A DNA stretch of 64,000 nt from Yuukianura sp. NJ FZ-2021 (taxonomy: Eukaryota). A model generated the notes under the pieces. The model did no database searches. It was given only the letters and a program-made list of their open reading frames with translations, and was not told the DNA's origin. Location of the stretch: assembly GCA_046563655.1 (NCBI GenBank), contig CM102286.1, positions 7,874,001-7,938,000 on the forward strand. Direction: 5' to 3'. Shown here one piece after another: positions 14,591-38,900 of the stretch. The translations under genes were made by a program, and so were the position numbers. The stretch's first letter is position 1. Each line of letters opens with the position of its first letter.

Positions 14591-14851
14591 AAAGTTACAG
14601 TATTTGAGCCAGAAATAACATAAAGTAACAGATGAGTAGTTTGAAATAAAGTAGAGGAATTGAAATCGTAGTAGGTTTGAACGTAGAACGCGCGTTTGCA
14701 GCTGATCACTTTCCTTCTACGTTTGCTCTCAAAGTTAGCGTAGAGATTTCAAGTTGAAATCGCACGTGTAAACTTCATAAAAAATTGAATTATAAGGGAA
14801 TGCCAGAAACCCCATAAGAAAGTACTTATTCATGTTCAGTCTTCACTTCAT

Positions 14852-17800
14852 AATTTCTGAAAATTTTACGGAAGGGACCCCTGAGGGTCCCCTCCAAGCT
14901 GCCACTAAGTCCTGTTCAAATTTCAAAGAAATGAATTTTTCCGAAACCCAAAAATGTGAAAATTTTTTGAAAGTTTTCGGAAAATTCAAAGTACTGACCA
15001 CGCCCAAAGTCCAGAATGTTTGCAAATTTTATGGAAGGGACCCCTGAGGGTCCCCTCCAAGCTGCCACTAAGTCCTGTTCAAATTTCAAGGAAATGAATT
15101 TTTCCGAAACCCAAAAATGTGAAATTTTTTTCAAAGTTTTCGGAAAATTCAAAGTACTGACCACGCCCAGAATCCAGAAATTCTGAAAATTTTATGGAAG
15201 GAACCCTTAAGGGTCTCCTCCAAGCGGACACTAAGTACTGTGGAAATTTCAAAGAAATGAATTTTTCCGAAACCCAAAAATGTGAAAATTTTTTGAAAGT
15301 TTTCGGAAAATTCAAAGTACTGACCACGCCCAAAGTCCAGAATTTTTGAAAATTTTATGGAAGGGACCCCTGAGGGTCCCCTCCAAGCTGCCACTAAGTC
15401 CTGTTCAAATTTCAAAGAAATGAATTTTTCCGAAACCCAAAAATGTGAAAATTTTTTGAAAGTTTTCGGAAAATTCAAAGTACTGACCACGCCCAAAGTC
15501 CAGAATGTTTGCAAATTTTATGGAAGGGACCCCTGAGGGTCCCCTCCAAGTTGCCACTAAGTCCTGTTCAAATTTCAAAGAAATGAATTTTTCCGAAACC
15601 CAAAAATGTGAAATTTTTTTGAAAGTTTTCGGAAAATTCAAAGTACTGACCACGCCCAAAGTCTAGAATTTTTGAAAATTTTACGGAAGGGACCCCTGAG
15701 GGTCCCCTCCAAGCTGCCACTAAGTCCTGTTCAAATTTCAAAGAAATGAATTTTTCCGAAACCCAAAAATGTGAAAATTTTTTGAAAGTTTTCGGAAAAT
15801 TCAAAGTACTGACCACGCCCAAAGTCCAGAATGTTTGCAAATTTTATGGAAGGGACCCCTGAGGGTCCCCTCCAAGCTGCCACTAAGTCCTGTTCAAATT
15901 TCAAGGAAATGAATTTTTCCGAAACCCAAAAATGTGAAATTTTTTGAAAGTTTTCGGAAAATTCAAAGTACTGACCACGCCCAAAGTCCAGAATTTTTGC
16001 AAATTTTATGGAAGGGACCCCTGAGGGAGGGTCCCCTCCAAGCTGCCACTAAGTCCTGTTCAAATTTCAAGGAAATGAATTTTTCCGAAACCCAAAAATG
16101 TGAAATTTTTTTGAAAGTTTTCGGAAAATTCAAAGTACTGACCACGCCCAAAGTCTAGAATTTTTGAAAATTTTACGGAAGGGACCCCTGAGGGTCCCCT
16201 CCAAGCTGCCACTAAGTCCTGTTCAAATTTCAAAGAAATGAATTTTTCCGAAACCCAAAAATGTGAAAATTTTTTGAAAGTTTTCGGAAAATTCAAAGTA
16301 CTGACCACGCCCAAAGTCCAGAATGTTTGCAAATTTTATGGAAGGGACCCCTGAGGGTCCCCTCCAAGTTGCCACTAAGTCCTGTTCAAATTTCAAAGAA
16401 ATGAATTTTTCCGAAACCCAAAAATGTGAAATTTTTTTGAAAGTTTTCGGAAAATTCAAAGTACTGACCACGCCCAAAGTCTAGAATTTTTGAAAATTTT
16501 ACGGAAGGGACCCCTGAGGGTCCCCTCCAAGCTGCCACTAAGTCCTGTTCAAATTTCAAAGAAATGAATTTTTCCGAAACCCAAAAATGTGAAAATTTTT
16601 TGAAAGTTTTCGGAAAATTCAAAGTACTGACCACGCCCAAAGTCCAGAATGTTTGCAAATTTTATGGAAGGGACCCCTGAGGGTCCCCTCCAAGCTGCCA
16701 CTAAGTCCTGTTCAAATTTCAAGGAAATGAATTTTTCCGAAACCCAAAAATGTGAAATTTTTTGAAAGTTTTCGGAAAATTCAAAGTACTGACCACGCCC
16801 AAAGTCCAGAATTTTTGAAAATTTTATGGAAGGGACCCCTGAGGGTCCCCTCCAAGTGGCCACTAAGTCCTGTTCAAATTTCAAAGAAATGAATTTTTCC
16901 GGAACCCAAAAATGTGAAATTTTTTTGAAAGTTTTCGGAAAATTCAAAGTACTGACCACGCCCAAAGTCCAGAATTTCTGAAAATTTTATGGAAGGGACC
17001 CCTGAGGGTCCCCTCCAAGTTGATACTAAGTCCTGTTCAAATTTCAAAGAAATGAATTTTTCCGAAACCCAAAAATGTGAAATTTTTTTGAAAGTTTTCG
17101 GAAAATTCAAAGTACTGACCACGCCCAAAGTCTAGAATTTTTGAAAATTTTACGGAAGGGACCCCTGAGGGTCCCCTCCAAGCTGCCACTAAGTCCTGTT
17201 CAAATTTCAAAGAAATGAATTTTTCCGAAACCCAAAAATGTGAAAATTTTTTGAAAGTTTTCGGAAAATTCAAAGTACTGACCACGCCCAAAGTCCAGAA
17301 TGTTTGCAAATTTTATGGAAGGGACCCCTGAGGGAGGGTCCCCTCCAAGCTGCCACTAAGTCCTGTTCAAATTTCAAGGAAATGAATTTTTCCGAAACCC
17401 AAAAATGTGAAATTTTTTTCAAAGTTTTCGGAAAATTCAAAGTACTGACCACGCCCAAAATCCAGAAATTCTGAAAATTTTATGGAAGGAACCCTTAAGG
17501 GTCTCCTCCAAGCGGACACTAAGTCCTGTTCAAATTTCAAAGAAATGAATTTTTCCGAAACCCAAAAATGTGAAAATTTTTTGAAAGTTTTCGGAAAATT
17601 CAAAGTACTGACCTCGCCCAAAATCCAGAAATTCTGAAAATTTTATGGAAGGAACCCTTAAGGGTCTCCTCCAAGCGGACACTAAGTACTGTGGAAATTT
17701 CAAAGAAATGAATTTTTCCGAAACCCAAAAATGTGAAAATTTTTTGAAAGTTTTCGGAAAATTCAAAGTACTGACCACGCCCAAAGTCTAGAATTTTTGA

Positions 17801-18410
17801 AAATTTTATGGAAGGGACCCCTGAGGGTCCCCTCCAAGCTGCCACTAAGTCCTATTCAAATTTCAAAGAAATGAATTTTTCCGAAACCCAAAAATGTGAA
17901 AATTTTTTGAAAGTTTTCGGAAAATTCAAAGTACTGACCACGCCCAAAGTCCGGAACGTTTGAAAATTTTATGAAAGGGACCCCTGAGGGTCCCCTCCAA
18001 GCAGACACTAAGTACTGTGGGAATTTCAAAGAAATGAATTTTTCCGAAACCAAAAATGTGAAAATTTTTTGAAAGTTTTCGGAAAATTCAAAGTACTGAC
18101 CACGCCCAAAGTCCAGAATGTTTGCAAATTTTATGGAAGGGACCCCTGAGGATCCCCTCCTAGCTGCCACTAAGTCCTGTTCAAATTTCAAAGAAATGAA
18201 TTTTTCCGAAACCCAAAAATGTGAAAATTTTTTGAAAGTTTTCGGAAAATTCAAAGTACTGACCACGCACAAAATCCAGAAATTCTGAAAATTTTATGGA
18301 AGGAACCCTTAAGGGTCTCCTCCAAGCGCACACTAAGTACTGTGGAAATTTCAGAGAAATGAATTTTTCCGAAACCCAAAAATGTGAAAATTTTTTGAAA
18401 GTTTTCGAAA
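14852..18410. repeat. Satellite array A, ~163-bp unit, about 22 copies
   Basis: GGGACCCCTGAGGGTCCC (or its variant) recurs at 14874, 15037, 15200, 15363 and onward (period 163). Confidence 0.97.
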
Positions 18411-18419
18411 ATTTAAATA

Positions 18420-18872
18420 TTTCAGTGATCTACAAAAAATTTTCAGTGATCGATCAGTGATGATTTTTCAGTGATTAATGAAAAATTTTAAACTGATGAT
18501 TTAGCAGTGATCACTGAAAAATTGACAATTTTTCAATAATCACAGAAAAATAAACATTGATCAGTGAAAAATCAGCAGTGATTACTGAAAAATAGTGGGT
18601 GATCGCTGCAAATTTGTGGTCACTAAAAAATCATCAGTGCTCACTGAAAATTTGTTTAGTTGGTCACTGAAAAATCATCAGTGATCACTGAAAGCATTTT
18701 GGTGGTCACTGAAAAATCATCAATGTTCACTGAAAAGTTTTTACTCTTCAGTGAAGAGTTTTTGGTGGTCACTGCAAAATCACCAGTGGTCACAGAAAAC
18801 TTTTTAGTGGTCACAAAAATCTACAATTTATGAATTTGAAAATTCGTGTATCACGGAAAAATCATCACTGAT
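18420..18872. repeat. Short degenerate repeats of CAGTGAT / TCACTG forming a loosely self-inverted spacer
   Basis: Left part dominated by tcagtgat, right part by ggtcactgaaaa; CAGTGATCACTG palindromes. Confidence 0.7.
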
Positions 18873-18937
18873 GCCTAATCACTTCCAATGTTGATTAATT
18901 AGTGGTAATTTTAACTTTAGGAAAGATGAACTTTATG

Positions 18938-19260
18938 CGTGGTCAGTACTTTGAATTTTCCGAAAACTTTCAAAAAAATTTCACATTTTTGGGTTTCGGA
19001 AAAATTCATTTCTTTGAAATTTGAACAGGACTTAGAGGCAGCTTGGAGAGGACCCTCAGGGGTCCCTTCCATAAAATTTTCAAAAATTCTGGACTTTGGG
19101 CGTGGTCAGTACTTTGAATTTTCCGAAAACTTTCAAAAAATTTTCAAATTGTTGGGTTCCGGAAAACTTCATTTCTTTGAAATTTCCATAGGACTTAGTG
19201 CCCACTTGGAAGGGACCCTCAAGGGTCCCTTCCATAAAAATTTCAAAAATTTTTCTGGAA
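18938..19260. repeat. Two inverted copies of satellite A, the second drifting towards satellite B
   Basis: gcgtggtcagtactttgaattttccgaaaac... is the reverse complement of the array A unit. Confidence 0.92.
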
Positions 19261-22200
19261 GTGCGTGGCCAGCACTTAAGTTTTTCACAAAAAATTTCCC
19301 TTTTTCTGGAGTTTACAACCTCGGAGAAAGTGTTCAACGCATAAATCTACCTCGGAATGGGTACCCACGAGAAGGGACCTTTCTTGGGTACCTTCGTTAA
19401 AAATTTCAAAAATTTTTACTGGAAGGGCGTGGCAAGCACTTAAGTTTTTCTTCAAAAACATCGACTTTTTCTGGAGTTTACAACCTCGGAGAAAGTGTTT
19501 AACGCTTAAATCTACCTCGGAAAGGGTACCCACGAGAAGGTACCTTTCTTGGGTACCTTCGTTAAAAATTTCAAAAATTTTTACTGGAAGGGCGTGGCAA
19601 GCACTTAAGTTTTTCTTCAAAAACATCGACTTTTTCTGGAGTTTACAACCTCGGAGAAAGTGTTTAACGCTTAAATCTACCTCGGAAAGGGTACCCACGA
19701 GAAGGTACCTCCCTTGGGTACCTTCCTTAAAAATTTCAAAAATTTTTACTTAAGTTTTTCTTCAAAAACATCGACTTTTTCTGGAGTTTACAACCTCGGA
19801 GAAAGTGTTTAACGCTTAAATCTACCTCGGAATTGGTACCCACGAGAAGGTACCTCCCTTGGGTACCTTCCTTAAAAATTTCAAAAATTTTTACTGGAAG
19901 GGCGTGGCCAGCACTTAAGTTTTTTTCCAAAAAATTTTCCCTTTTTTTGCAATTTTCAACCTCGGAGAAAGTGTTTGACGCTGAAATCTACCTCGGAATG
20001 GGTACCCACGAGAAGGTACCTCCCTTGGGTACCTTCGTTAAAAATTTCAAAATTTTTAATGGAAGGGCGTGGCCAGCACTTAAGTTTTTTTCAAAAATTT
20101 CCCCTTTTTTTCCACTTTTCAACCTCGGAGCAAGTGTTCAAGGCTTAAATCTACCTCGGAATGGGTACCCACAAGAAGGTACCTCCCTTGGGTACCTTCG
20201 TTAAAAATTTCAAAATTTTTACTGGAAGGGCGTGGCCAGCACTTAAGTTTTTCTTCAAAAACATCGACTTTTTCTGGAGTTTACAACCTCGGAGAAAGTG
20301 TTTAACGCTTAAATCTACCTCGGAAAGGGTACCCACGAGAAGGTACCTCCCTTGGGTACCTTCCTTAAAAATTTCAAAAATTTTTACTTAAGTTTTTCTT
20401 CAAAAACATCGACTTTTTCTGGAGTTTACAACCTCGGAGAAAGTGTTTAACGCTTAAATCTACCTCGGAATTGGTACCCACGAGAAGGTACCTCCCTTGG
20501 GTACCTTCCTTAAAAATTTCAAAAATTTTTACTGGAAGGGCGTGGCCAGCACTTAAGTTTTTTTCCAAAAAATTTTCCCTTTTTTTGCAATTTTCAACCT
20601 CGGAGAAAGTGTTTGACGCTGAAATCTACCTCGGAATGGGTACCCACGAGAAGGTACCTCCCTTGGGTACCTTCCTTAAAAATTTCAAAAATTTTTACTG
20701 GAAGGGCGTGGCCAGCACTTAAGTTTTTTTCCAAAAAATTTCCCCTGTTTTTTGCAATTTTCAACCTCGGAGAAAGTGTTTAACGCTGAAATCTACCTCG
20801 GAATGGGTACCCACGAGAAGGTACCTCCCTTGGGTACCTTCGTTAAAAATTTCAAAAATTTTTACTGGAAGGGCGTGGCAAGCACTTAAGTTTTTCTTCA
20901 AAAACATCGACTTTTTCTGGAGTTTACAACCTCGGAGAAAGTGTTTAACGCTTAAATCTACCTCGGAAAGGGTACCCACGAGAAGGTACCTCCCTTGGGT
21001 ACCTTCCTTAAAAATTTCAAAAATTTTTACTTAAGTTTTTCTTCAAAAACATCGACTTTTTCTGGAGTTTACAACCTCGGAGAAAGTGTTTAACGCTTAA
21101 ATCTACCTCGGAATTGGTACCCACGAGAAGGTACCTCCCTTGGGTACCTTCCTTAAAAATTTCAAAAATTTTTACTGGAAGGGCGTGGCAAGCACTTAAG
21201 TTTTTCTTCAAAAACATCGACTTTTTCTGGAGTTTACAACCTCGGAGAAAGTGTTTAACGCTTAAATCTACCTCGGAAAGGGTACCCACGAGAAGGTACC
21301 TCCCTTGGGTACCTTCCTTAAAAATTTCAAAAATTTTTACTTAAGTTTTTCTTCAAAAACATCGACTTTTTCTGGAGTTTACAACCTCGGAGAAAGTGTT
21401 TAACGCTTAAATCTACCTCGGAATTGGTACCCACGAGAAGGTACCTCCCTTGGGTACCTTCCTTAAAAATTTCAAAAATTTTTACTGGAAGGGCGTGGCC
21501 AGCACTTAAGTTTTTTTCCAAAAAATTTTCCCTTTTTTTGCAATTTTCAACCTCGGAGAAAGTGTTTGACGCTGAAATCTACCTCGGAATGGGTACCCAC
21601 GAGAAGGTACCTCCCTTGGGTACCTTCCTTAAAAATTTCAAAAATTTTTACTGGAAGGGCGTGGCAAGCACTTAAGTTTTTCTTCAAAAACATCGACTTT
21701 TTCTGGAGTTTACAACCTCGGAGAAAGTGTTTAACGCTTAAATCTACCTCGGAAAGGGTACCCACGAGAAGGTACCTTTCTTGGGTACCTTCCTTAAAAA
21801 TTTCAAAAATTTTTACTGGAAGGGCGTGGCAAGCACTTAAGTTTTTCTTCAAAAACATCGACTTTTTCTGGAGTTTACAACCTCGGAGAAAGTGTTTAAC
21901 GCTTAAATCTACCTCGGAAAGGGTACCCACGAGAAGGTACCTCCCTTGGGTACCTTCCTTAAAAATTTCAAAAATTTTTACTTAAGTTTTTCTTCAAAAA
22001 CATCGACTTTTTCTGGAGTTTACAACCTCGGAGAAAGTGTTTAACGCTTAAATCTACCTCGGAATTGGTACCCACGAGAAGGTACCTCCCTTGGGTACCT
22101 TCCTTAAAAATTTCAAAAATTTTTACTGGAAGGGCGTGGCCAGCACTTAAGTTTTTTTCCAAAAAATTTTCCCCTTTTTTGCAATTTTCAACCTCGGAGA

Positions 22201-23262
22201 AAGTGTTTGACGCTGAAATCTACCTCGGAATGGGTACCCACGAGAAGGTACCTCCCTTGGGTACCTTCCTTAAAAACTTCGAAATTTTCACTTGAAGGGC
22301 GTGGCCAGCACTTAAGTTTTTTTCAAAAATTTCCCCTTTTTTTTGCACTTTTCAACCTCGGAGAAAGTGTTAAACACTTTAATCTACCTCGGAATGGGTA
22401 CCCACGAGAAGGTACCTCCCTTGGGTACCTTCGTTAAAAATTTCAAAAATTTTTACTGGAAGGGCGTGGCAAGCACTTAAGTTTTTCTTCAAAAACATCG
22501 ACTTTTTCTGGAGTTTACAACCTCGGAGAAAGTGTTTAACGCTTAAATCTACCTCGGAATTGGTACCCACGAGAAGGTACCTCCCTTGGGTACCTTCGTT
22601 AAAAATTTCAAAAATTTTTACTGGAAGGGCGTGGCAAGCACTTAAGTTTTTCTTCAAAAACATCGACTTTTTCTGGAGTTTACAACCTCGGAGAAAGTGT
22701 TTAACGCTTAAATCTACCTCGGAATTGGTACCCACGAGAAGGTACCTTTCTTGGGTACCTTCGTTAAAAATTTCAAAAATTTTTACTGGAAGGGCGTGGC
22801 AAGCACTTAAGTTTTTCTTCAAAAACATCGACTTTTTCTGGAGTTTACAACCTCGGAGAAAGTGTTTAACGCTTAAATCTACCTCGGAAAGGGTACCCAC
22901 GAGAAGGTACCTCCCTTGGGTACCTTCCTTAAAAATTTCAAAAATTTTTACTTAAGTTTTTCTTCAAAAACATCGACTTTTTCTGGAGTTTACAACCTCG
23001 GAGAAAGTGTTTAACGCTTAAATCTACCTCGGAATTGGTACCCACGAGAAGGTACCTCCCTTGGGTACCTTCCTTAAAAATTTCAAAAATTTTTACTGGA
23101 AGGGCGTGGCCAGCACTTAAGTTTTTTTCCAAAAAATTTTCCCTTTTTTTGCAATTTTCAACCTCGGAGAAAGTGTTTGACGCTGAAATCTACCTCGGAA
23201 TGGGTACCCACGAGAAGGTACCTCCCTTGGGTACCTTTCTTAAAAATTACAAAAATTTTTAA
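19261..23262. repeat. Satellite array B, ~165-bp unit with 145-bp deletion variants, about 25 copies
   Basis: GTACCCACGAG recurs at 19361, 19526, 19691, 19836, 20002 and onward (periods 165, 165, 145, 166). Confidence 0.97.
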
Positions 23263-23768
23263 TGGAGTAAATTTAAAGCAATTTTTGCAATAAATTGCCA
23301 GCTACACTTCCTGCTTCTGCTAATTAATGTAAGTTAGTTGAGTTTTATATTTTACTACATTTAAGTAAATTAGAAAATACTTCCGATGCCCATATGCGAT
23401 TTTGCATTGCTTCGGCTGCATGGTATCACGTAATCTGAAAATAGGGTGAAAGTCCATAGTTAACTATGGGAGAAAGCCATAGTTAACTCCAAATGGACAC
23501 CGATCCTCCAGAATTATTTTACCTCTCTTACTCTTCCCTCCAGGTTAACTTTTTTGCTTTTAGTTAATTCGAAAAGTGCAACTGGTTTTTTAATTAAAAC
23601 CGATTGAGTGAAGAAATCCAATCAAACGTGGAACTGAAGCAATAACTAAGGTAAGTCAGTTTTGGATACATTTGCATCCTTTCTAAAAATAAGCAATAAG
23701 TTATGTAAAATTAACCAATTTAAGCATGCACTGATTGAAGTTAATTTTCTTGCAGGCATTAATCGACC

Positions 23769-26614: not shown

Positions 26615-27314
26615 CCCTAATTCCTCGCCTACAAGCCGCGGCTTATCTGAGAAATTTCGAAAAATTTTGAAAACAAAATAATTTTTTTCGCTGAAATCTG
26701 AAGAATTTTGTTAAAAATCTGTAGGAATTGCTGGTAAATGTGCTAAATCCTATTTAAAACGGTTTTCATCTAATGTTAATTCATCAAATCCACCATTTTT
26801 GCCACGGTTCTGGTGCCTGGCGAATCAAATTTGTACGAATTCGTGCATAATTAGAAGATTGTTTGAGGAAACTGGAAATAATTTTACTTTCACAGGGCAA
26901 CTCAGATTTTTATAATTTTCTTTCTCAACAAACTAACCTAACCTAGCCTACCAACAACATTGTTTAAGCCTTTTTTTTTAAAAGTAACCGAGTTAAGTTG
27001 CAAAACGTTGAAAAAAAATTTACATGAGCCCGTATGGGGACATTTCAATTTTCAAACTTTTTTAAAAATTTTAGTTTTTGAGAGTGTAGTAAAAAAAAAT
27101 ATAGCAGGGGTCCACAGGTATTTTAGGAAAAAATCGGAGTTACACGATGAAAGTTACACCTGACATGATGAGTTACAATTACACCTGAAACTGTACTAAT
27201 CTGTACAGTTTCCTTTTCAACTTTAAAGTTTGCGTTTTTGAGCTATCAAGGTATTTTTTAAAATTCCTTGGTGCGGCTTATACGCGAGTGCGGCTTATAG
27301 GCAAGGAATTAGGG
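26615..27314. mobile_element. pogo/Tigger-like MITE (700 bp)
   Basis: 25-bp TIR CCCTAATTCCT(C/T)GCCTA(C/T)AAGCCGC, TA on both flanks, no coding capacity. Confidence 0.88.
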
Positions 27315-27406
27315 TATTTCTATTTCCAATTGAATAATTATTATTTGTGAAATTATGTTTCAATTGTTAACTACAGCCAGAACGAAAACCAAATTCCACT
27401 CATCTC

Positions 27407-27931
27407 TATGGGGGGAGTTTTGCTGATTAATGTTAGGAATTTTTCCACATTAGGAATGCCTAAAATACGGGCTATTCCTGACGCAGAACATCCTGACGTC
27501 GGATTCCTGATGCAGAAATTCCTGACGTTCAATTTCTAATGCAGAAATTCCTAACGCAGAAAATCGTGACGTCCAATTCCTAATGCAGAAAATCGTGGCG
27601 TTCAATTCCTAACGCAGAAAATCCTGGCGTCAAATTCCTAACGTAAAAAATCCTGAGGTCCAATTCCTAATGTAAAAATTTCTGACAGTGATTTTCTAAT
27701 GTAAAAATTCCTGGCAGCGAATTTCTAATGTAGAAAATGCTGACAGATAATTTCTAATGCAAAAAATCCTGACAGACAATTTCTAACGTAAAAAATCCTG
27801 ACACACATTTTCTGAAGTAATCAGCTGATTCCTAATGTAAAAATTCGTGGCGTGGAAAGTTCGTGTTCAATTCCTGGCGAGGAAAGTTCACAGGCTTTCA
27901 CTTTCTCATTTTCATTCTCTCTCTATTGTAA
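27407..27931 (+). repeat. Left TIR with internal ~29-bp tandem repeats
   Basis: Reverse complement of 35376-35887; repeats like ttcctaacgcagaaaatcctgacgtccaa at ~27476-27850. Confidence 0.92.
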
Positions 27932-28258
27932 CACATTCTTTCTACTGTTGAGAGAGGGCGTCAATGGCATGCATAAAATACTTGGTTATGTGATAGTTTA
28001 TTTACAAATGTTGAATGGAATATAATAATAAATATATATATAATATATATAATATGAGTATTATAAGTATTAACAAGAAAATTCAACGTCTTCTTATACT
28101 AAAAACGAAGAGACAAATTCCAACAAAAGCTTTCTTGAAACCAGATCTTTTAGCAATAGTCATTTGAGTTAAGGATACAGGGATACAGTAATTAGATACA
28201 ATAATGAGGATTACTTGAATTTTAAATCTAATTAGGCGTAGGAGGGTAGCGCTACCCA

Positions 28259-29516
28259 TTAATTAAAATAAACTCTAACGAGGACTCGCAGTTTCTCTTT
28301 ACAGATAGGACATCTTGGAGACTGTACTCTTCCAAAATCATCGCGCGGAACGTTCGCTTTTACGCCTTCGATGCATCGGAGACAGTACTGGTGGCCACAT
28401 TTTAAAACGTACTCCTTGTTGTGATCGTAACAAATTGAGCACAGCATCTGCAGTCCATAAACGATTCATTACTGCTCAAATATTTATGCATACTTATATC
28501 CATGCCAGACTCGTTAGCTTACCCCCGTTTTTAGAGAGTCCATTTCCTCATTGACACGATGTGACCCTTGTTCCTTAAGAACTTCTTTGCGTCTTTTCAA
28601 TTCCTTCAGTTCTGTTTCCATATCCCTGCAATCAGAGAATTGTTGCAGACAATTCAACATATGCTCTGCGTCAGCGATCTTCTTCTGAATTGTTTCCAGG
28701 TTAGTCAGCATTGATTCGAAAATTTCTGATGTAGGAGAGCGCTCTCCTAGTTTGCTTTGACAAACTTCCAGGTCAAGTTCGACCTCTTTAATGAAGTCGT
28801 GAAGCCTCGGACCTTGTATGCCAAACTCCTTCAATTGCGCAACAACCTTTGAGACTTTCGCGTACAGAGGTTGTCTAACTTCGAACAATTGATTTACAGT
28901 GAGTTGAAACATTTTGTCTTCCTCGTCCCAAAACCGTGTTCCCCTGTAGCATTCTATATACTAAAACAAAAGAAAAATAACACTTTTAAGATTGGCCGCA
29001 ACAAAAAAACTAGGCTAGATGAATGGATCGCGCGATCCTTACGTTTCTCGAATGCGCGATACCATCCCTCATTGATGCTAGTCGCGACTTTAGTAGCTGG
29101 TGCAGTTCGGTCGCAGTTACTAAATCTTCGCGATGAGACATGAGAGTTGGCTTTTGGATATAGTATAAACCAAACTCCACCTCTGCGATCACGTCCAGTT
29201 CAGCGTCAAGGTGCTTACGTAACATGTCTCGCTGCAATGAAAGTTTCAAGTTATTATCTTATCTCCTCACAGATTTCACTTCTTAGCAGATAATGTTAAA
29301 CAATGCATTACTTACATGATGAATAACTGGTGAAGTACGGATACTTTGCTTCTCTCGCCATTTCTGTTTCTCCGCTTCCGGTTTTGGAGCCAGCATTCTG
29401 CGTTCCGTTACTGCTGAACGTTTTGTTTGGATGGCGCCATCCGAGCGCATATCCGTCGTACAAGCACGTCGGTGATGGCCTAAACTACCGCAAGACCAGC
29501 ACCCACTGGAACTCAT
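28259..29516 (-). CDS. Zinc knuckle + coiled-coil + C3HC4 RING protein (~338 aa; exons 29516-29316, 29231-29043, 28960-28523, 28447-28259), putative E3 ligase
   Basis: CWSCGSLGHHRRAC (CX2CX4HX4C); heptad-like middle region; CSIC...CGHQYCLRC...CPIC; three phase-0 GT-AG introns give an open frame. Confidence 0.85.
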
Positions 29517-30796
29517 TTTAACGTGAAACAACTTTCTGGAATTTATAAAGAATTGAATGTTTATATTTTCTGGAAGCGTGTAAAACTAATTCTAAAACTT
29601 GGCCTGAAGCTAAACACTAACGAGCATCGTTGCAACCACCACTGTCATCTGTGTCTACAGTTCATAGCTAACCGCCGCAACCACATCGCTCATGATTCCT
29701 ACAACATGAACATTTACTCAATTTGATTTCGAATGGTTTTTTATATTGAAATATTTCCATAAATTGTAAGGACAAAAGATAAATACATTACTTAAACTTA
29801 ATTACAAAATTACTATTATTCGTCCTTACTTCAGCCAAAATAACTGTGCGATTGGTGTATCTAAACCACTGCTATTTCGGACTACGAATTCGAATTTTTT
29901 AACTACGAATTCGAAAAGACTTATGTGGCGTGGAATAAAACCTAGATTTCTCAAAAACGAAAGTCCAGATTTTGAATTCCTTTCGCAGGTTCATAGCACG
30001 CATGAATCTGCGTACTTATGGAAAAATTTAGCTTTCGCACTGGTCGAAGTCGAAAGTTATGACCATCCTTTTCCACCAGCTTGGCTAGATTTGAGGACTA
30101 CAGAATTAAAATTTTGAATACAACTGATACAACTGAACAAACAGTAATCACTATGACTGATTCTGACGATACATAATAAAAATTAATTAATACACTACAG
30201 CTCAAAAACGACTGTCCAGATTCTGAACTCGTTTTGTACACTTAAAGCTTCTATATTGAAGGATGTTTCAAGAAATTTGTAGCTTTCTTGCTGATCCAGG
30301 TCAAAAGTTATGACAATTTAATTTCAAAACCTACCCACTCTCGCTTAAATAAGGCTTTGAACCTTGGTAGCTTAAATCCTATCTCAACGCCTTAAAGTAA
30401 AGATAAAGTACCGTATTTTAAAGCAAAACTGTTTTCATAAGGTTTCATTGATGAATTCCACTGGCGGTCAAAAGAGATTATGTTTTACGTTAAATTAAAT
30501 TATTAATTAATTAATTATCATATCTCATTAATTAATTTATTAATCAACTATCAATTAATGAAAAGACGGGTTGAAAGCCCACGTCTTCTACTGATTTCTG
30601 ACTATAGGTTGTCAATATTCATTTCTTAAAAAAAGTTGAATAAGTAACTGACCACCGAACAGTTCGAGTTCTGACTATTATCCAGACCCCTCAGGTATTT
30701 CTTTGGAACCTGTTTACTTCCCGTGTTTTCACAGTATTGAACTACTATGCTTATTGCATTTCGTGTAGCGCTACACTTTAAGGTGCATTGCTGGTT

Positions 30797-32500
30797 ATGG
30801 AGCACCTAACGCAGCAATCCTTACGTTGCTCAATCCAGCAACTCATCAACGCTTTAAACGAAGGTGCGGATTTAGACATAGTCACACAAGGTTTAGATTT
30901 CCTGTTGTTAGAACTCGAGCTGTGTAACCAACAGGAACACTGGGTTGTTGAATCGGTGTCTAAATTGACAGAAGTTACAGCTCTATTGGTGCAAGAGTTG
31001 GAAGGGGAAACATTGCGCAAACTAGGAAGACCAAGAATTCATATTCCTATTGAAGATATTGAGTTTTTACTATCCTTCCGGTTCAAAGTCGTGGATATTG
31101 CCAAGTTGTACGGGGTGTCAAGGGATACAATAAGTGGACGCCTTCGAGACCATGGGATTTCGGTAACTACTAAGTTACACCATGCTTAGCGCTAAGCAGT
31201 AAATGTGAATGGGCTGACTCTGTTTTGTGAACAAAATTATCAGGTTTCCCACAGCTATACAAACCTAACTGACGAACAACTACAGTCGGAAATGCTGAAA
31301 ATTTTACAAGACTTTCCAAACACAGGGTACAAACGAATGAAAGGATTCCTCTTAAGCAATGGCATTAAGGTGGCGGACAAAAGGGTTCGACTAGCTATGA
31401 GGGAAGTTGACCCTGAAGGTGTCGCTTTACGACGACGAGGCAACAGAGCCATAGTACGCCGGCAATACAGAATGACCTATTCCAACGAGCTATGGCATTT
31501 GGATACAAATATGAAGTTGATCAGGTTGACAAATTTAATAACAGCAGTTTAAGGAAGTTGGAAAGCGCTTTCCGTTGTTAAATGTTTTAAGTTTATTTTA
31601 GGTGGAACATTATAATCAGGAGCTGTATCGATGGGAAGTCACGGGTTGTAGTTTATCTGGATGCCAGTGCCGATAACACGTCCAAGAGTAATTTGGAATC
31701 ATTCTTAAAAGCTGTGACAAAATATGGTATTCCTTGGAGGACTCGCTCGGACAAAGGCGGGGAGAATGTGTCAATTGCTCAATTCATGATTGAAAACCGT
31801 GGAGCTGGAAGAGCAAGTCATATTTGTGGTAGGTCGGTGCACAACCAAAGGTGAGTAGCGCTACTCCAAAAAAAAAATAGTGTCATATCATAAAACCATA
31901 ATCTTAGTTTGTAATTATGTTAGGATTGAGCGGTACTGGAGAGACGTTTACTATGGGTATACGAGCACAATTGCGAGTGTACTAATTGCGCTGGAAGAGG
32001 ATGGGTACCTGGACATAGATAACCCGAAGCATGTAGAACTTGTCCACTTAGTATTTGTTCCAAGAATTAATGACGCTTTGGAAGTTTTTCGAAATGCCTG
32101 GAATAATCACCCATTGTCGACGGAAGGAAATTATAGTCCAAATCAGCTCATGTTACTCAACCTGCCGCCCGATGACCATGTCCAACACATTTCTCAGGTA
32201 CTTTGCGTAGCGCTACGCATCGGAGTTGAGAAAATATAATGTTTTTTCATGACGAATATACCAAATCCGTTCCTGTTTCCGTAGGAGGATGTGGACGACT
32301 ACTTGTGCCAGGACTTGTCTGATGTTGCGTACCTGGTTCCACCGGATGTGGATTCGATAACATCGCCAATGAGTTTGGCCGGAAGTATTACAGAAATTGA
32401 ATTGGATAGACTAAGACAGCTGGACTTCAACCAACCGTCATCCAGCTTTGGCTTTGACATATTTCTAAACGCAGTGGGCCTACTTGATTTCACATCGTAA
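30797..32500 (+). CDS. IS3/integrase-like DD34E transposase (~461 aa; exons 30797-31162, 31244-31524, 31602-31850, 31924-32197, 32285-32500)
   Basis: HTH (VVDIAKLYGVSRDTISGRL), GYKRMKGFL, catalytic WHLDTNMKL, RSDKGGEN, HNQRIERYWRDV; all splice junctions preserve the frame. Confidence 0.92.
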
Positions 32501-32746
32501 AAAACGAAGCAGATTTTGTTTAATCTGAATAGGATTAAATAAATTAGTGTGGCGCCGCACTACAGAAAATAAGCTGAAATCGTATCAGTTAGCGTTTTCT
32601 CGCAAATATTGCTACATGTGGCGCCACATAAAACGAAATAAATAATCTGAAAGAACTAAACTAGAAGTAAAGTAGCATGGGTTTTGTGAAGTTCGAATTA
32701 AGTAAATACATAACGCAACAACAATAAGTACACTTCCTCCGACGTG

Positions 32747-35170
32747 CTAGACTCCCCCGAAACCGTTGCTTGCGTACCGCACGACGAGATTCAACTTCTC
32801 CACTAGTTCCGTGCAACTGAGGTCATTTGGAATTTGTATTTCATTGAAGCACGCACGAACCATGAAGTCAACATCGTCTTCAAAACGTACAATTAAAGGA
32901 TCTTCCGGTAAAACGGGCCAACCAGTCCACGCGGACAGCAGATTCTGTAGACCACCTGAAACTAAATATAGCAGTTAGTATGTTGAGCATTCCGGAGTAG
33001 CGCTACTCAACTTTGAGTAACGTAACTTACGCAGTTCCAAAGATTCTATGAAGCTGGTTACAACCGAAAGCATTTCTTGTCTTCCGTGACATTCGATTTT
33101 GGAAATAAGCAAGCTGGAAGGATAATTAAGTGCTGAACTCCGAGGAAATAAAGATTCAACTAAGTACGACTTTCCTTTCAGGAATTCATTCAGTCCTGCG
33201 CACTTGAATCCAGCTTTAATCGCCTCCAGTTGTGCAACGCGACGGTCGACGACGGCATGATATAACACTTGTTCTATGACAAAGCCAGAGTTGTGTTTGT
33301 CGACGGTTTCTCCGAATTCCGATGATTCTGCCACCTCTTGCACATGCGCTGCCTCATCCTCCGTTAGAGTGGCGCCACTCTGCAGTTTCGCCAACTAATT
33401 TTTTTCAAAGTTGCGTGAAATTAAATCAAAAGTTAAGTTAATCAAACAACAAAATGATTAAGTTACCAATGCAACTGCTTCACGAACGTGAAGTTCTGGA
33501 ACGTCCTCCACGGTGATAGGAAGTGGCGTATCACTATCAACGGTTTCAAGAAATACGTACTGCGCCACCGCCTCACTCAATCCAATAAACGCGATTCCGC
33601 AATGTAAAGCAGCGTGACCCAAAAACTTTCCAATCGTTTTGAAAACCCCAGCGCGAAGGAGCCTTCCATCTGTTGCCGGAACCTTGTGGTCTAGTTCACC
33701 TTCGAAAGCAGGAAGGCCATCTATCTTGTCTTGAACTATTGCCGTCAGTCCTTTCCAAAAGTATTCACGAGTTATTGCTCCAATGTCGGCCCCTTCAAAA
33801 TGATAGTTAAAATAAACTAAACATTTTAATCAATATAATTAGTTGGATAGCGCTATCCTAGTACCGGGTTCACCCTGAAATTCTACTTTTGGTTTCTTCA
33901 GGAAGTTGAACGCAGGATCCTTGTAAATGCCAAGAATTTTTTCTAGAAAACGCTCTCTTGAAGCAAGAATATACTGAAACCCTTCGTTTTCCATGTAAAT
34001 TTGTTCGCGGTAATGGTCCAATGTCAATAGTTCTCCCTCGATTGATGGCGATGAGTTCGCAGATGTATCGTTCCGGGTAACCTCCGACAAAGGCAAGTGC
34101 TGATTAACAGCACCCTCGAGTGTTGAATTTAATGCCGAAGGCTGTCGTCCGTCTCCGACCGGTGTCTAAAAAATGGATAACGCCATCCATTAAACATTGT
34201 TTATCACTAACCTCAACATAGAACTTACAACCATATAATTTGAGCGAGGAAGTTGAAGATTAACTTCAGGTTCGGCACTCAAGCCTTGGTGAAGCTCCTC
34301 TGAATCCACTGGTATGGGTTGATCAAGCTGAACATCCACTGCTACGTGTGGTAACGGTTGTTCAATTCCTTCCGCAACCTGTGTCAAGTGTAAACAGTTC
34401 CAATTACAGTTAGTTTTGATTAGGATAGCGCTATCCATACAAAGCAATACTTAAAATGAGTGTAGACGAGGAACGTAACTTACACTTAAAATGTCGGAAA
34501 CTGGCTGGACGTAGATAACTGCAAGTCGAGAAGCGCGTAAATGCAGCACACCAGGCACTGGCTCCGTGTTTGATACTCGAACCAATGGCTTCCCTTTACC
34601 ACCAGTCAGTGCACGATATAATACAACACCTACTGCAACTAATTTTGGGAAAGTGCTTTCCAGTGCCGCCTTCAATGCGTCAATTGTTGCAGTGGGATCT
34701 AGCAAAGTAACAATTGATCATTACCCATGCCACACTCTACACCTTTATTTAAAAAAAAACTAACCAATTGTGATAACTTCTTCCCCTAGTCCATGCCTTT
34801 TGAGAAGTAGCATACGAGATTCGATTGGTGTTTTCGATTCCGAAGGTCCACCAAGACAACAGTACCTGGCAGTCCAAGGCCTTATATTACGTACCGGTAT
34901 GGAACGATGTCGAAGTGCTGGGCGCCCAGTTAATCGCAGACCAGCAGCTGAAGTCGATGGTCTAGGATAAGGTGCAAACAGGCGAGACATTTCGGATCGC
35001 GCGAGTCCATTGGTAGAGCTTCCGGATTGACCTTGTTCTTGTCTTCGAGTTACCACTGGTGTAGTGTGACCCGGAGTCACTGTTGTAGCTGTTGGAGACT
35101 CAACGCCAAGTAAACTAGCAAGTTGGGTAAGAATTTGAGTAGCAGTAGCTCTGGTATTTCCATCCGCCAT
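32747..35170 (-). CDS. HECT-domain E3 ubiquitin ligase-like protein (~656 aa; exons 35170-34765, 34698-34484, 34378-34229, 34165-33865, 33792-33467, 33394-33031, 32955-32747)
   Basis: VEFQGEPGADIGAITREYFW, FKTIGKFLGHAALH, QLEAIKAGF, LLSAWTG, catalytic RACFNEIQIP and C-terminal GFGGV*; frame intact across 6 introns. Confidence 0.88.
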
Positions 35171-35375
35171 ATTGGGCTGATTTGTATTAGTTCCGGTGTT
35201 AGAAAACCGTCACGACAAAATTCTACATTGATTGATATACAGTATTTGAAATATCGCAACACTTATCCACAAAAGAGTGGCGCCACTCAACAGACGTGTA
35301 GCACTACACCTAAAAATGTAACGCTAGTTTTTTTCATTGCCGATAACGCCCCCTCTTGACGGTTGCAAAATGTTT

Positions 35376-35887
35376 TTACAATAAAAAGTGAGAATGAAAA
35401 TGAGAAAGTGAAAGCCTGTGAACTTTCCTCGCCAGGAATTGAACACGAACTTTCCACGCCACGAATTTTTACATTAGGAATCAGCTGATTACTTCAGAAA
35501 ATGTGTGTCAGGATTTTTTACGTTAGAAATTGTCTGTCAGGATTTTTTGCATTAGAAATTATCTGTCAGCATTTTCTACATTAGAAATTCGCTGCCAGGA
35601 ATTTTTGCATTAGAAATTCACTGTCAGAAATTTTTACATTAGGATTTGGACCTCAGGATTTTTTACGTTAGGAATTTGACGTCACGATTTTCTTCGTTAG
35701 GAATTTGACGCCAGCATTTTCTGCGTTAGGAAATGGACGTCACGATTTTCTGCGTTAGGAATTTAGCGCTAGGATTTTCTGCATTAGGAATTGGACGTCA
35801 CGATTTTCTGCGTTAGGAATAGCCTGTATTTTAGGCATTCCTAATGTGGAAAAATTCCTAACATTTATCAGCAAATCTCCCCCCATA
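35376..35887 (-). repeat. Right TIR of the IS3EU-like element
   Basis: Reverse complement of 27407-27931; inner ~250 bp nearly identical, repeat copy number differs slightly. Confidence 0.92.
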
Positions 35888-35911
35888 CATCTCTGAAAAA
35901 ATTTTCTCCTC

Positions 35912-38900
35912 TTATACGTTTCTCCTCAGAAACTCTGCTGGACGAGTGAAGTCCCCGTCGCCACTTTCGGCATCTTCTGCAAGGTCATGTGGGATTTCCT
36001 TAATGTTGTCAGATAATTTGCGAGATACTTGTGCAAATTCGCGATTCGTTTGAACCACTTTCTCTAGCTTTGCGATCAATTCATAGTCGGGTACAATGGT
36101 TTTGCTCCAGTCAATTCCAAGTATTTTTCCCACGGTAGTGCGCAAATTAAGGAGCTGAAATAGACAAACATCATCAGAGTATCAAACAAAAAAGAAACAT
36201 AATGTGTAACCTCCATGATTGATGCATGCAATTTACCTGATTTTCACGTCTTGACGATTCCAATAGGTTCTTCCGGCAAGCATTTAACTCTGAACTTAGT
36301 CTCTGGAATGCATTATCATTTAAATCTCGTTCCTGATTGGTGTTTTCGCGTGAAATTTTGAGCTGGTCTTTTAGCAAATTCACTTTCCTGTTATACTTGA
36401 CCCGAAGGACTTCCATATCATTCAGTTTAGTCTCCAACTCTTCAATTTTTCTTGCCCTTTCCAAGGAAATAATCTGCAAATGTTTGGAATTCTGAAAAAG
36501 TTACACTTGATTCAGAAGTAGCTTGTAAATCGTACTTTGTATTCCGTCGCGTCTGTCAAGTGCAACTTCATATCTTTCACAGAAAGTCTTGATTCGCGCA
36601 GGTCCAGCTCAAGACGTTCAACTTGCTTGATGAGCTTCTTGCATCTTGCGGTCGCTTCATCTCGTTCCAGTTCCAGCGTTGTTCTTAGCTTAATGCTGTC
36701 TTCGAGTAAAGTAATTTTCTTCCTTAGCATATCCAAATGCAAATCTTTCTTCTCCATCTGCTCTTTTAACGTACGAACTCTTCGCTGAAGTTGATACACT
36801 GATGCAGTCTATTTAAAAAAAGAAGCGAAGAGACAAGCAATTAAAAACCAAGCAAAGTCACAACTGTAAGCATTCTATTTGAATTTTGAAACTTTCTAGA
36901 AGCATACTTTATCTGCCAAGCGATCGCCCTCCAATTTTGCCAGTTGCGTCGCTCTTGTTACAATCGCATCCGTCTGAAGGTCGAATCCGAGTTCCTTGGA
37001 AACTTCGTCCAGTCCCAAAATATTTCCAAGTTGCTCCAGAAATTGCATATACTAAATGTAAGTATCAGAAAAAGTAAAATCCAGTGAATTTTAGTAAATG
37101 TTTGGTCTTTTGAATCTCACTCTGTTCTTATCCCTGCGTAATCCTTCGTTTAGGATTTCAGTTGTTGTTAGCTGGGTCTCCGTTTCCTGAAGCTTTTTGA
37201 GTGAAATCACCTTGTCACTAATGGCATCCTCTTGCTTGCCCTTTGAATCCGACAGTAACTTTTCGAGACGTTCGACATTTTCTGTTAATCGTCCAACCTT
37301 TTCCTTCAGTTGGTCATTGGCCTGTTTAAAAGGAAAAAGCAAAACATTGAAAAAACTCTTGAAAGTTCAAACAAAGCATTTACGTATAGTTTCTCCTTCA
37401 ATTCATTTTGGATTTCCTTGATTCTTTCTCGGATTCCGCTTGGACTATCCACCGTTCTAGATCCAGTAGATAACTGAATTGCTATTGAATCCTGAAAATT
37501 TCGAAGTTCTTTTTCAGTTCTGCTATTTTTCTCTTCAGCGACCAGTAGATTTTGTTTCAAGGTGTGTAGTTGCAGTTCCATGGTTTTCGCTTGCTCGTTC
37601 AAATTGGAGACAGTTCTGTCAGTAATGGAAGAACGCTCTTTGTAACTCCCTAGTTCGGTTTGAAGATATGATTTTTCTGTTTGAATTTCATCCTTCTCCT
37701 GAAAAATTAAAATATAAATGATACCAAAAAACTGGCGTTAGTAAGAAATTCACCTCAAATTAGGATATGTTCTGACTCACTCGTTTGAGCGAATCAACGC
37801 TGGACATGAACGAAACTATCCGCTGGTTGGAGTTCTCCTTTTCGGAATTAAGACGATTAATCATTTCCACATTAATTTTAGTTTCCCTCTCGAAAGATTC
37901 AATTGATTGCCTCATTTCAGCAACCTTGACGCTTAGTCTTCGGTTTTCCTTAAAAAAATTGAAAAATAAAAAACATAAAAAACGAAACCAAAAATAAAAT
38001 ACATTTAAAAAATCCAAAGTTATTGCTGCTATTGCGCAGTAGGATTTTACCTGGAAAACTTCGTAGACGCGTTTCAGAATAGCGTCCATCTTGGGAGATT
38101 CTTCTTGCAGGTCAACTGCTTGGCCCAATTTTTTGCAAAACTCCAACAGACTTTTCTGTGAATGCTCCTTGGCTTGATCCGCTCCATCTCGATCAATCAG
38201 CGTAGACCTTCAATGACAAAAAACAAACTTAATTACTAACTTAGAGTAGAACAATGACCACCAAAACGTTTAGCTCACCTCAGCTGGCTCTGTAGGTCTT
38301 CAATAAAATTTTGATTATGCTGAAGTTCGTGTTTACAACGAGAAATTTCATCTTCCTGCCTTTGATTCGTTGTAGAAAGTTGTCGCTCGCGTTCCTCAAC
38401 GTCCTGAATAGACAAAGCATGACGTAAAATTGAAGATGTTTAACAATCAATTAATTGGATCATGCAAATTACCTGAAGTTTCCGCTGCAGGGAACCATTG
38501 ATGGCATTAAGTCGAGCTAAATTCTCCTTCAAATTGTCAATTTCAGCATTCAGACGCTGCAAAGAACCGTCTTTGGTCTTCATCCTGTTTTCATTGTCTC
38601 GTAACTAAAAATTATCATAACATAATAAATTAATAAATAATAAATAATAAAATATACAAAAATAAAGTAAACAAATTATTCTAAATTGTACAATTAATCA
38701 GTTGAAAACCGCTTACCTCTTGAGTTAATCGATCATTTTTGTACTTCAGAGCTGCAATTTCACTTTGCAGATGTGTGTCTGCTGGAATATCGTCCTGCAA
38801 CATTAAAAACCAATCCCAAGGCTTAAATTGTGATTAAAAAGTTAATTATGTTAAGGTACAGAAACGAATTATTACTTCAAATGAATTGGTATATTAATTA

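Follow-up and report, generated by a model that had tools for sequence, protein, structure and literature searches.

Transposases of the RAG1/ProtoRAG type carry a RING E3 domain as an N-terminal fusion, and poxviruses encode p28, a RING E3 that combines an N-terminal nucleic-acid-binding module with a C-terminal RING and is thought to act against the host. The ligand of CCHC zinc knuckles is single-stranded or looped nucleic acid, and C3HC4 RINGs bind E2~ubiquitin. Mpe1 of yeast and RBBP6 open with a ubiquitin-like DWNN domain and have their knuckle adjacent to the RING. Both proteins contain a CCHC knuckle as well as a RING, and the knuckle region of Mpe1 touches RNA, according to the respective reports (PMC9380774, PMC6436931). 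DNA transposons are known to carry passengers that blunt host control, an example being the TET/JBP dioxygenases of fungal elements. The report on fungal IS3EU families describes TET/JBP dioxygenase and alpha-kinase genes in these elements, a gene order that is conserved within lineages, the proposal that the passengers aid the element against host control, and element ends of the form TAYGG..CCRTA (PMC12730594). For complete IS3EU families, TA..TA termini and usually 6-bp TSDs have been described (PMC10045372). We found neither RING or HECT genes nor internal palindromes described for IS3EU/GingerRoot elements in the literature, and Repbase and supplementary files may bear on this point.

In the window analysed here, that is the whole 64-kb stretch of DNA, we find a predicted gene for a zinc-knuckle and RING protein within an element of this kind. 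The DNA is eukaryotic, and introns are present in its genes. With a probability of roughly 65% we believe the knuckle-RING gene to be a conserved accessory gene of one IS3EU/GingerRoot lineage, as opposed to a gene of the host or one captured recently. The transposon family seems, in short, to carry a protein-tagging gene of its own. The element and its genes have the following coordinates:

27407-35887: IS3EU/GingerRoot-type transposon of 8,481 bp, recognised by its terminal inverted repeats (TIRs), ends and TSD
27407..27978, plus strand: left terminal inverted repeat, beginning TATGGGGGGAG, with the TSD CATCTC at 27401-27406
35328..35887, minus strand: right terminal inverted repeat, beginning TATGGGGGGAG, with the TSD CATCTC at 35888-35893
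28259..29516, minus strand: predicted CCHC-helical-RING gene, ATG to stop, 338 aa
29516-29316, 29231-29043, 28960-28523 and 28447-28259 (stop included), minus strand: exons 1-4 of the predicted gene
30797..32500, plus strand: transposase gene, five exons, 461 aa, intact, with rva_4 integrase core
30797-31162, 31244-31524, 31602-31850, 31924-32197 and 32285-32500, plus strand: transposase exons
32747..35170, minus strand: HECT-like gene, multi-exon, a hand-drawn predicted model

The inverted-repeat core of 378 nt is 97% complementary and is lengthened by alignment to TIRs of about 570 bp, which contain 29-nt subterminal tandem repeats. The element terminates in TATGG..CCATA and is flanked on either side by the 6-bp TSD CATCTC; its termini fit both of the IS3EU end definitions cited above, and the length of the TSD fits as well. 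The transposase gene contains four GT-AG introns of 73-87 nt, and its product matches the rva_4 integrase core in Pfam with E values of 8e-32 and 9e-22. By its ends and TSD we class the element as IS3EU/GingerRoot-type, and its rva_4 core makes the transposase a candidate member of that superfamily; the element is apparently autonomous. The initial annotation had placed the gene between the TIRs of an IS3EU-type element and beside its transposase, which the TIRs, the TSD and the rva_4 core bear out; the RING gene and the transposase gene are divergent in the window, with 1.28 kb between them. Rfam matched no family across the element, and within the 64-kb window there is no second copy of the element genes. 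The ORFs around the element resemble ordinary host genes (oxoprolinase, C2H2 zinc fingers, WD40, ABC transporter). Two long satellite arrays lie at 14720-18500 (period of ~163 bp) and at 19270-23420 (~165/145 bp), and the stretch 18927-19251 is the inverted complement of units of the first array, to which it is 87-94% complementary.

Logan contigs were taken from four DNA runs, three of which represent one sample of organism A and one organism B. Contigs of three of the four runs contain a junction 27407-35912, at which 8,504 nt are skipped and a single CATCTC is left. The 19 letters at this junction correspond to the right flank in a slightly diverged form, and the contigs thus represent an allelic or paralogous empty site. 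The flanks themselves (26900-27406 and 35888-36100) are likewise repetitive: summed depth is high there and several of the contigs diverge, so that the element seemingly was inserted in another repeat of which other copies exist without it. In run X5, from organism B, one contig joins position 29016 to 34977. It represents a derivative with an internal deletion, in which the transposase and most of the HECT-like gene are missing and the RING gene is reduced to its 3' part through the loss of exons 1-2; its existence implies that the RING gene is not required in cis by every copy.

The predicted gene agrees exactly, from stop codon to ATG, with the coordinates (28259-29516) and the length of 338 aa that had been annotated initially. 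Its exons contribute 67, 63, 146 and 62 codons, the last followed by the stop; all three predicted introns are of the GT..AG type, and the spliced CDS of 1017 nt has no internal stop. From the N-terminus onwards the protein consists of a zinc knuckle, a basic linker, ~200 residues of helices and a C3HC4 RING, to which the following segments correspond:

29460..29501, minus strand: CX2CX4HX4C zinc knuckle, aa 6-19, exact pattern
28523..28960, minus strand: exon 3 domain, aa 131-276, modelled as a three-helix bundle, with a conserved LGERSP loop
28301..28441, minus strand: C3HC4 RING finger, aa 279-325, ligand order C-C-C-H-C-C-C-C with RING spacing

Both zinc-binding modules had been proposed before, and both match their patterns, the knuckle exactly. 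The knuckle ligands C6, C9, H14 and C19 are invariant at all three loci now known (the window and the two relatives L001 and L002 described below). Against a curated cut-off of 20.8 bits for zf-CCHC (PF00098) the window protein scores slightly lower, at 20.4 bits, and the relatives reach 24.9 bits (L001, above the cut-off) and 17.9 bits (L002). Four RING models exceed their curated Pfam cut-offs in the window protein, namely zf-C3HC4 (PF00097; 31.2 bits, cut-off 21), zf-RING_UBOX (32.9, cut-off 25.2), zf-C3HC4_3 (28.7, cut-off 27) and zf-C3HC4_2 (27.3, cut-off 27). The nearest solved RINGs are those of TRIM31, TRIM39, ARIH1 and COP1, with E values of about 2e-3 to 8e-3. Moreover, the RING carries the Ile of C-x-I-C and the Pro of C-P-x-C, which we take to be the E2-contact positions. 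A nested retroelement gag remnant was also considered and rejected, as knuckle and RING belong to one and the same predicted multi-exon gene; in addition, a Pfam scan of 13 ORFs of the element reported no retroelement domain.

The coiled coil that had been proposed for the middle of the protein is borne out in part, the middle being helical. Fold prediction with a 7-sequence alignment models exon 3 as a three-helix bundle (pLDDT 82.6), and the coiled-coil-type Pfam matches in the protein are all sub-threshold. In Foldseek the only resemblances of the model are to helical bundles of a generic kind, syntaxin Habc and spectrin among them, with a best E value of 0.04, and a comparison of exon 3 with the ESM Atlas was uninformative (best score 0.75). 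By these comparisons the middle domain is an orphan. Taken together, the predicted domains indicate that the gene product is probably a ubiquitin ligase with a nucleic-acid-binding zinc knuckle.

The element may encode a second ligase, the gene for which had gone unmentioned in the initial annotation of the RING gene. The C-terminal exon of the HECT-like gene gives a weak match to the Pfam HECT profile (E 0.095, 12.8 bits as compared to a cut-off of 23.9), which spans profile positions 238-304 of 306, and the predicted protein has a Cys in an A-C-F-N context about 35 residues before its end. The fifth exon resembles large unnamed eukaryotic clusters in the ESM Atlas and also a cluster named 'G2/M phase-specific E3 ubiquitin ligase-like' (score 0.89), which we regard as a lead. 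The N-terminal region of roughly 450 aa matched no family, a sequence search of the PDB with the HECT-like exons returned nothing relevant, and the fold predicted for a single exon is of low confidence (pLDDT 54.5).

Is the RING gene a long-standing part of the transposon, or was a host gene or gene fragment recently transduplicated by this copy of the element, for which it would have no role? There is precedent for such an event in clubmoss GingerRoot elements, which are reported to capture gene fragments together with their introns (PMC6839031). Base composition leaves the gene and host genes unseparated: GC3 is 0.44 for the RING gene, 0.46 for the transposase and 0.38-0.47 for host genes, and neither GC3 nor CpG differs between element genes and host genes. 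Composition is therefore uninformative on residence time. The initial annotation had not recognised the product as a standard host protein, and among 1.84 billion representatives there is indeed no full-length homologue of host type, which argues against a recent capture. A full HMMER scan of these representatives with exon 3 matched five proteins (E 4.9e-11 to 3.8e-4), each of 104-170 aa and all of them single-exon ORF calls from metagenome contigs, and a word-indexed search returned no exon 3 homologue of similar or greater length. Viral contigs yielded no usable relative and prokaryote genomes none at all.

The metagenomes proved more informative. A scan with a three-sequence query alignment returned two loci from 243 pattern matches, L001 on a contig of 2,007 nt and L002 on one of 1,624 nt, both from the same metagenome and both too short to include TIRs. 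With the window's exons as tblastn queries, exons 1, 2 and 3 are found in order at either locus, at 28-44% amino acid identity, and the start of exon 4 is found in L002; in L001 the first RING cysteines are visible behind an AG acceptor. Exon 2 is 189 nt long (63 aa) and aligns without gaps across the window, L001 and L002, and exon 3 has 438 nt (146 aa) in both the window and L001. Upstream of the L001 knuckle gene and on the same strand lies an rva_4 exon (Pfam E 7.6e-23) that is 48% identical to that of the window. The L002 contig starts with a homologue of the ORF that follows the rva_4 exon in L001 (45% identity, E 5e-16), and this homologue lies about 220 bp upstream of the L002 knuckle gene. 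The last transposase exon of the window shows no significant similarity to that of L001 (E 0.19). The knuckle gene hence adjoins this type of transposase at three of three loci, in varying arrangement: as a divergent pair in the window and in tandem, with the gene downstream, in L001 and L002.

With the exon structure kept in both relatives, and with transposase exons directly upstream of each, a long-term accessory gene is to be preferred to a recent capture. It was also suggested from the outset that the gene would be such a component, which the two distant relatives now corroborate through their exon structure and their linkage to the transposase. Whether homologues always lie within TIRs beside a transposase had been put forward as a check; of this, adjacency to the transposase holds at all three loci, and TIRs have been seen at the window locus. 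The transduplication hypothesis is weakened further by the completeness of the gene, which is not a fragment, by the renewed adjacency to transposase exons in relatives of only 28-44% identity, and by the presence in the gene of the element's position-conserved palindromes (see below). We consider it very improbable.

Might the reading frame instead be a relic, one that merely happens to be open in a young, dead copy and whose protein no longer functions? Decay does occur. Exon 3 of L002 contains two in-frame stops (1340-1360), so this copy has decayed, and the deletion derivative in run X5 likewise exists without a complete gene. However, the window gene, the transposase and the visible part of the L001 gene are all intact. 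Moreover, the zinc ligands, the splice sites and the lengths of the exons have persisted where sequence identity is down to about 30-45%, which requires long-lasting purifying selection. A relic of this sort seems to us very improbable, and sequence comparison makes both of these alternatives, relic and capture, unlikely. We therefore return to the conserved accessory gene as the preferred reading.

A second line of evidence for long residence comes from a set of palindromes that marks the element. The 64-kb window contains 53 perfect palindromes of at least 12 bp, 16 of which are centred on GCGC, and all 16 of these fall within the element. Non-AT palindromes of at least 14 bp number 15 in the element, where shuffles average 0.62 (maximum 3 in 200), and 5 in the rest of the window, where they average 4.83. 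The RING gene alone, over 1,281 bp, has four palindromes of at least 14 bp (mean 0.07, maximum 1 in 200 dinucleotide shuffles). Among the 30 GCGC sites of the element, five flanking pairs are complementary at 15 and four at 2, whereas among the 63 sites outside it the respective counts are 0 and 2. The interior of the element (28244-35309) counts about 17-19 palindromes with a GCGC core and a length of 14-18 bp, the arms of which vary from site to site yet remain complementary and mostly end at 7 bp per half. Their spacing is mostly 225-580 bp, the exceptions being two close pairs (21 and 69 bp) and one gap of 1,334 bp that spans the spacer between the RING and transposase genes. Within this sole long stretch without a GCGC palindrome falls the segment 30070-30386, where summed contig depth is far above that of the rest of the element (up to ~4,500 in run X5) and which is probably a nested high-copy repeat. 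The palindromes are mainly non-coding, being present in all four transposase introns, in several introns of the HECT gene, in intron 2 of the RING gene and in UTRs; they favour UTRs and introns shortly past the 5' splice site, and some lie in frame within exons. Each TIR also contains, inward of the 29-nt repeats, one copy of the 12-bp palindrome AATCAGCTGATT (27819-27830 and 35479-35490), which unlike the internal palindromes has the core AGCT.

The RING gene and its immediate 3' end carry four of the palindromes:

28244..28257, unstranded: 14-bp palindrome GGGTAGCGCTACCC, beginning 2 nt past the stop codon of the RING gene
28732..28749, unstranded: 18-bp palindrome within exon 3, encoding the LGERSP loop
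29025..29038, unstranded: 14-bp palindrome in RING intron 2, from intron position +5
29429..29442, unstranded: 14-bp palindrome in exon 1, codons 25-30, right behind the knuckle

Those at 28244, 29025 and 29429 had been pointed out before, and each is a perfect 14-bp palindrome; the one of 18 bp at 28732-28749 is added as the fourth. Of the four residues that are invariant in the family alignment, two belong to the LGERSP loop encoded by this palindrome. Three palindromes of the RING gene have positional counterparts in the relatives, where the core is a different one. In L001 the core is ACGT and there are three such palindromes, each perfect over 16 bp, located in the intron behind the rva_4 exon, in exon 1 behind the knuckle and at position +9 of intron 2, a number above chance (3 as compared to a mean of 0.17, maximum 2 in 200 shuffles). 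In L002, palindromes with a GATC core lie in exon 1, at intron 2 +9 (16 bp there) and in exon 4; by shuffling, their number is not significant by itself. The LGERSP codons of L001 and L002 form 16-mers with one mismatched pair each. The matching positions imply that the gene has had the cis-signature of the element since before the three lineages split. The possibility that the palindromes are excision footprints was rejected, since they lie in frame in exons and their positions are conserved in relatives of 30% identity.

But what would read such sites? Variable complementary arms around a lineage-specific core fit a hairpin or cruciform that is read at its tip, and they would also fit a symmetric site that is held symmetric through some repair process. 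RNA folding of the four RING-gene palindromes is weak (-6.2 to -8.7 kcal/mol, z -0.7 to -2.7) and hence no argument for stable RNA hairpins at these sites. It is tempting to assign the reading to the RING protein itself. The knuckle-RING protein would then be a lineage-specific palindrome reader that recognises the regularly spaced 14-16 bp palindromes with GCGC, ACGT or GATC core as hairpins or cruciforms and, together with the HECT-like ligase, ubiquitinates proteins along the element's DNA, chromatin or transposition intermediate. If true, this would amount to a transposon-encoded, nucleic-acid-addressed ubiquitin system, but we hold the proposal to be quite doubtful.

How, then, might a conserved accessory gene of this kind serve its element? 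From the domains it is reasonable to suppose an RNA/ssDNA-guided E3 ligase. The knuckle would hold the protein on the element's transcripts or DNA wherever these are single-stranded or structured, the RING would recruit a ubiquitin-charged E2, and the helical domain would bind a partner or substrate. Proteins in the vicinity of the element's nucleic acid would consequently be ubiquitinated, to the benefit of the element; candidate substrates would be host chromatin or silencing factors or the element's own transposase, and the HECT-like ligase of the same element may join in.

The last of these candidate substrates leads to the main functional rival. The E3 could be a self-regulator that ubiquitinates the transposase or the HECT-like protein, and not host factors, in order to limit or time transposition. 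Co-inheritance with the transposase at three of three loci would be expected of such a regulator, and the divergent placement of the two genes at a distance of 1.28 kb would permit their co-regulation. Then again, self-regulation gives the zinc knuckle no obvious role, and we judge it unlikely on the whole. The conserved accessory gene, putatively acting through nucleic-acid-guided ubiquitination, remains the reading against which we compare the known systems.

Our literature searches turned up no conserved ubiquitin-ligase passenger in IS3EU elements. Should the protein prove to be an active E3, a transposon of the cut-and-paste or copy type would be at hand in which manipulation of host ubiquitin, as practised by many viruses, can be tested, and the RING gene would come paired with a second, putative HECT-type ligase. 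The palindromes add a cis feature that can be mutated and assayed. It occupies the same positions in exons, introns and UTRs and switches its core between lineages. Together, the ubiquitin-ligase passenger and the palindromes would make mechanistic work possible on IS3EU, a superfamily that has been little studied.

In sequence, the RING is nearest to those of TRIM31 and TRIM39 (E 1.6e-3 and 3.2e-3), and like the TRIM/RBCC proteins the window protein combines a RING with a helical region. Different from these proteins however, which have an N-terminal RING, a B-box and a coiled coil, its RING is C-terminal and its helical region is modelled as a three-helix bundle; no B-box was matched in Pfam at E values up to 1. 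With RBBP6/Mpe1 it shares the pairing of one CCHC knuckle with a RING in a single protein, but the knuckle is at the extreme N-terminus (from residue 6) and is separated from the RING by ~260 residues that include the helical domain, and here too Pfam gave no match to DWNN at E values up to 1. As in RAG1/ProtoRAG, a RING-type E3 module is tied to a DNA transposon; in the element described here, however, the RING is encoded by a separate intron-bearing gene, next to a transposase of integrase (rva_4) type. Poxvirus p28 resembles the window protein as a mobile-element protein with an N-terminal DNA/RNA-binding module and a C-terminal RING, a likeness by architecture alone; the two are unlike in their binding modules and in the kind of element that encodes them. 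Finally, the element shares with the fungal IS3EU families the TAYGG..CCRTA ends, the 6-bp TSDs and the extra genes beside the transposase. It differs from them in the nature of its passengers, which are a CCHC-RING and a HECT-like protein in place of a dioxygenase and a kinase.
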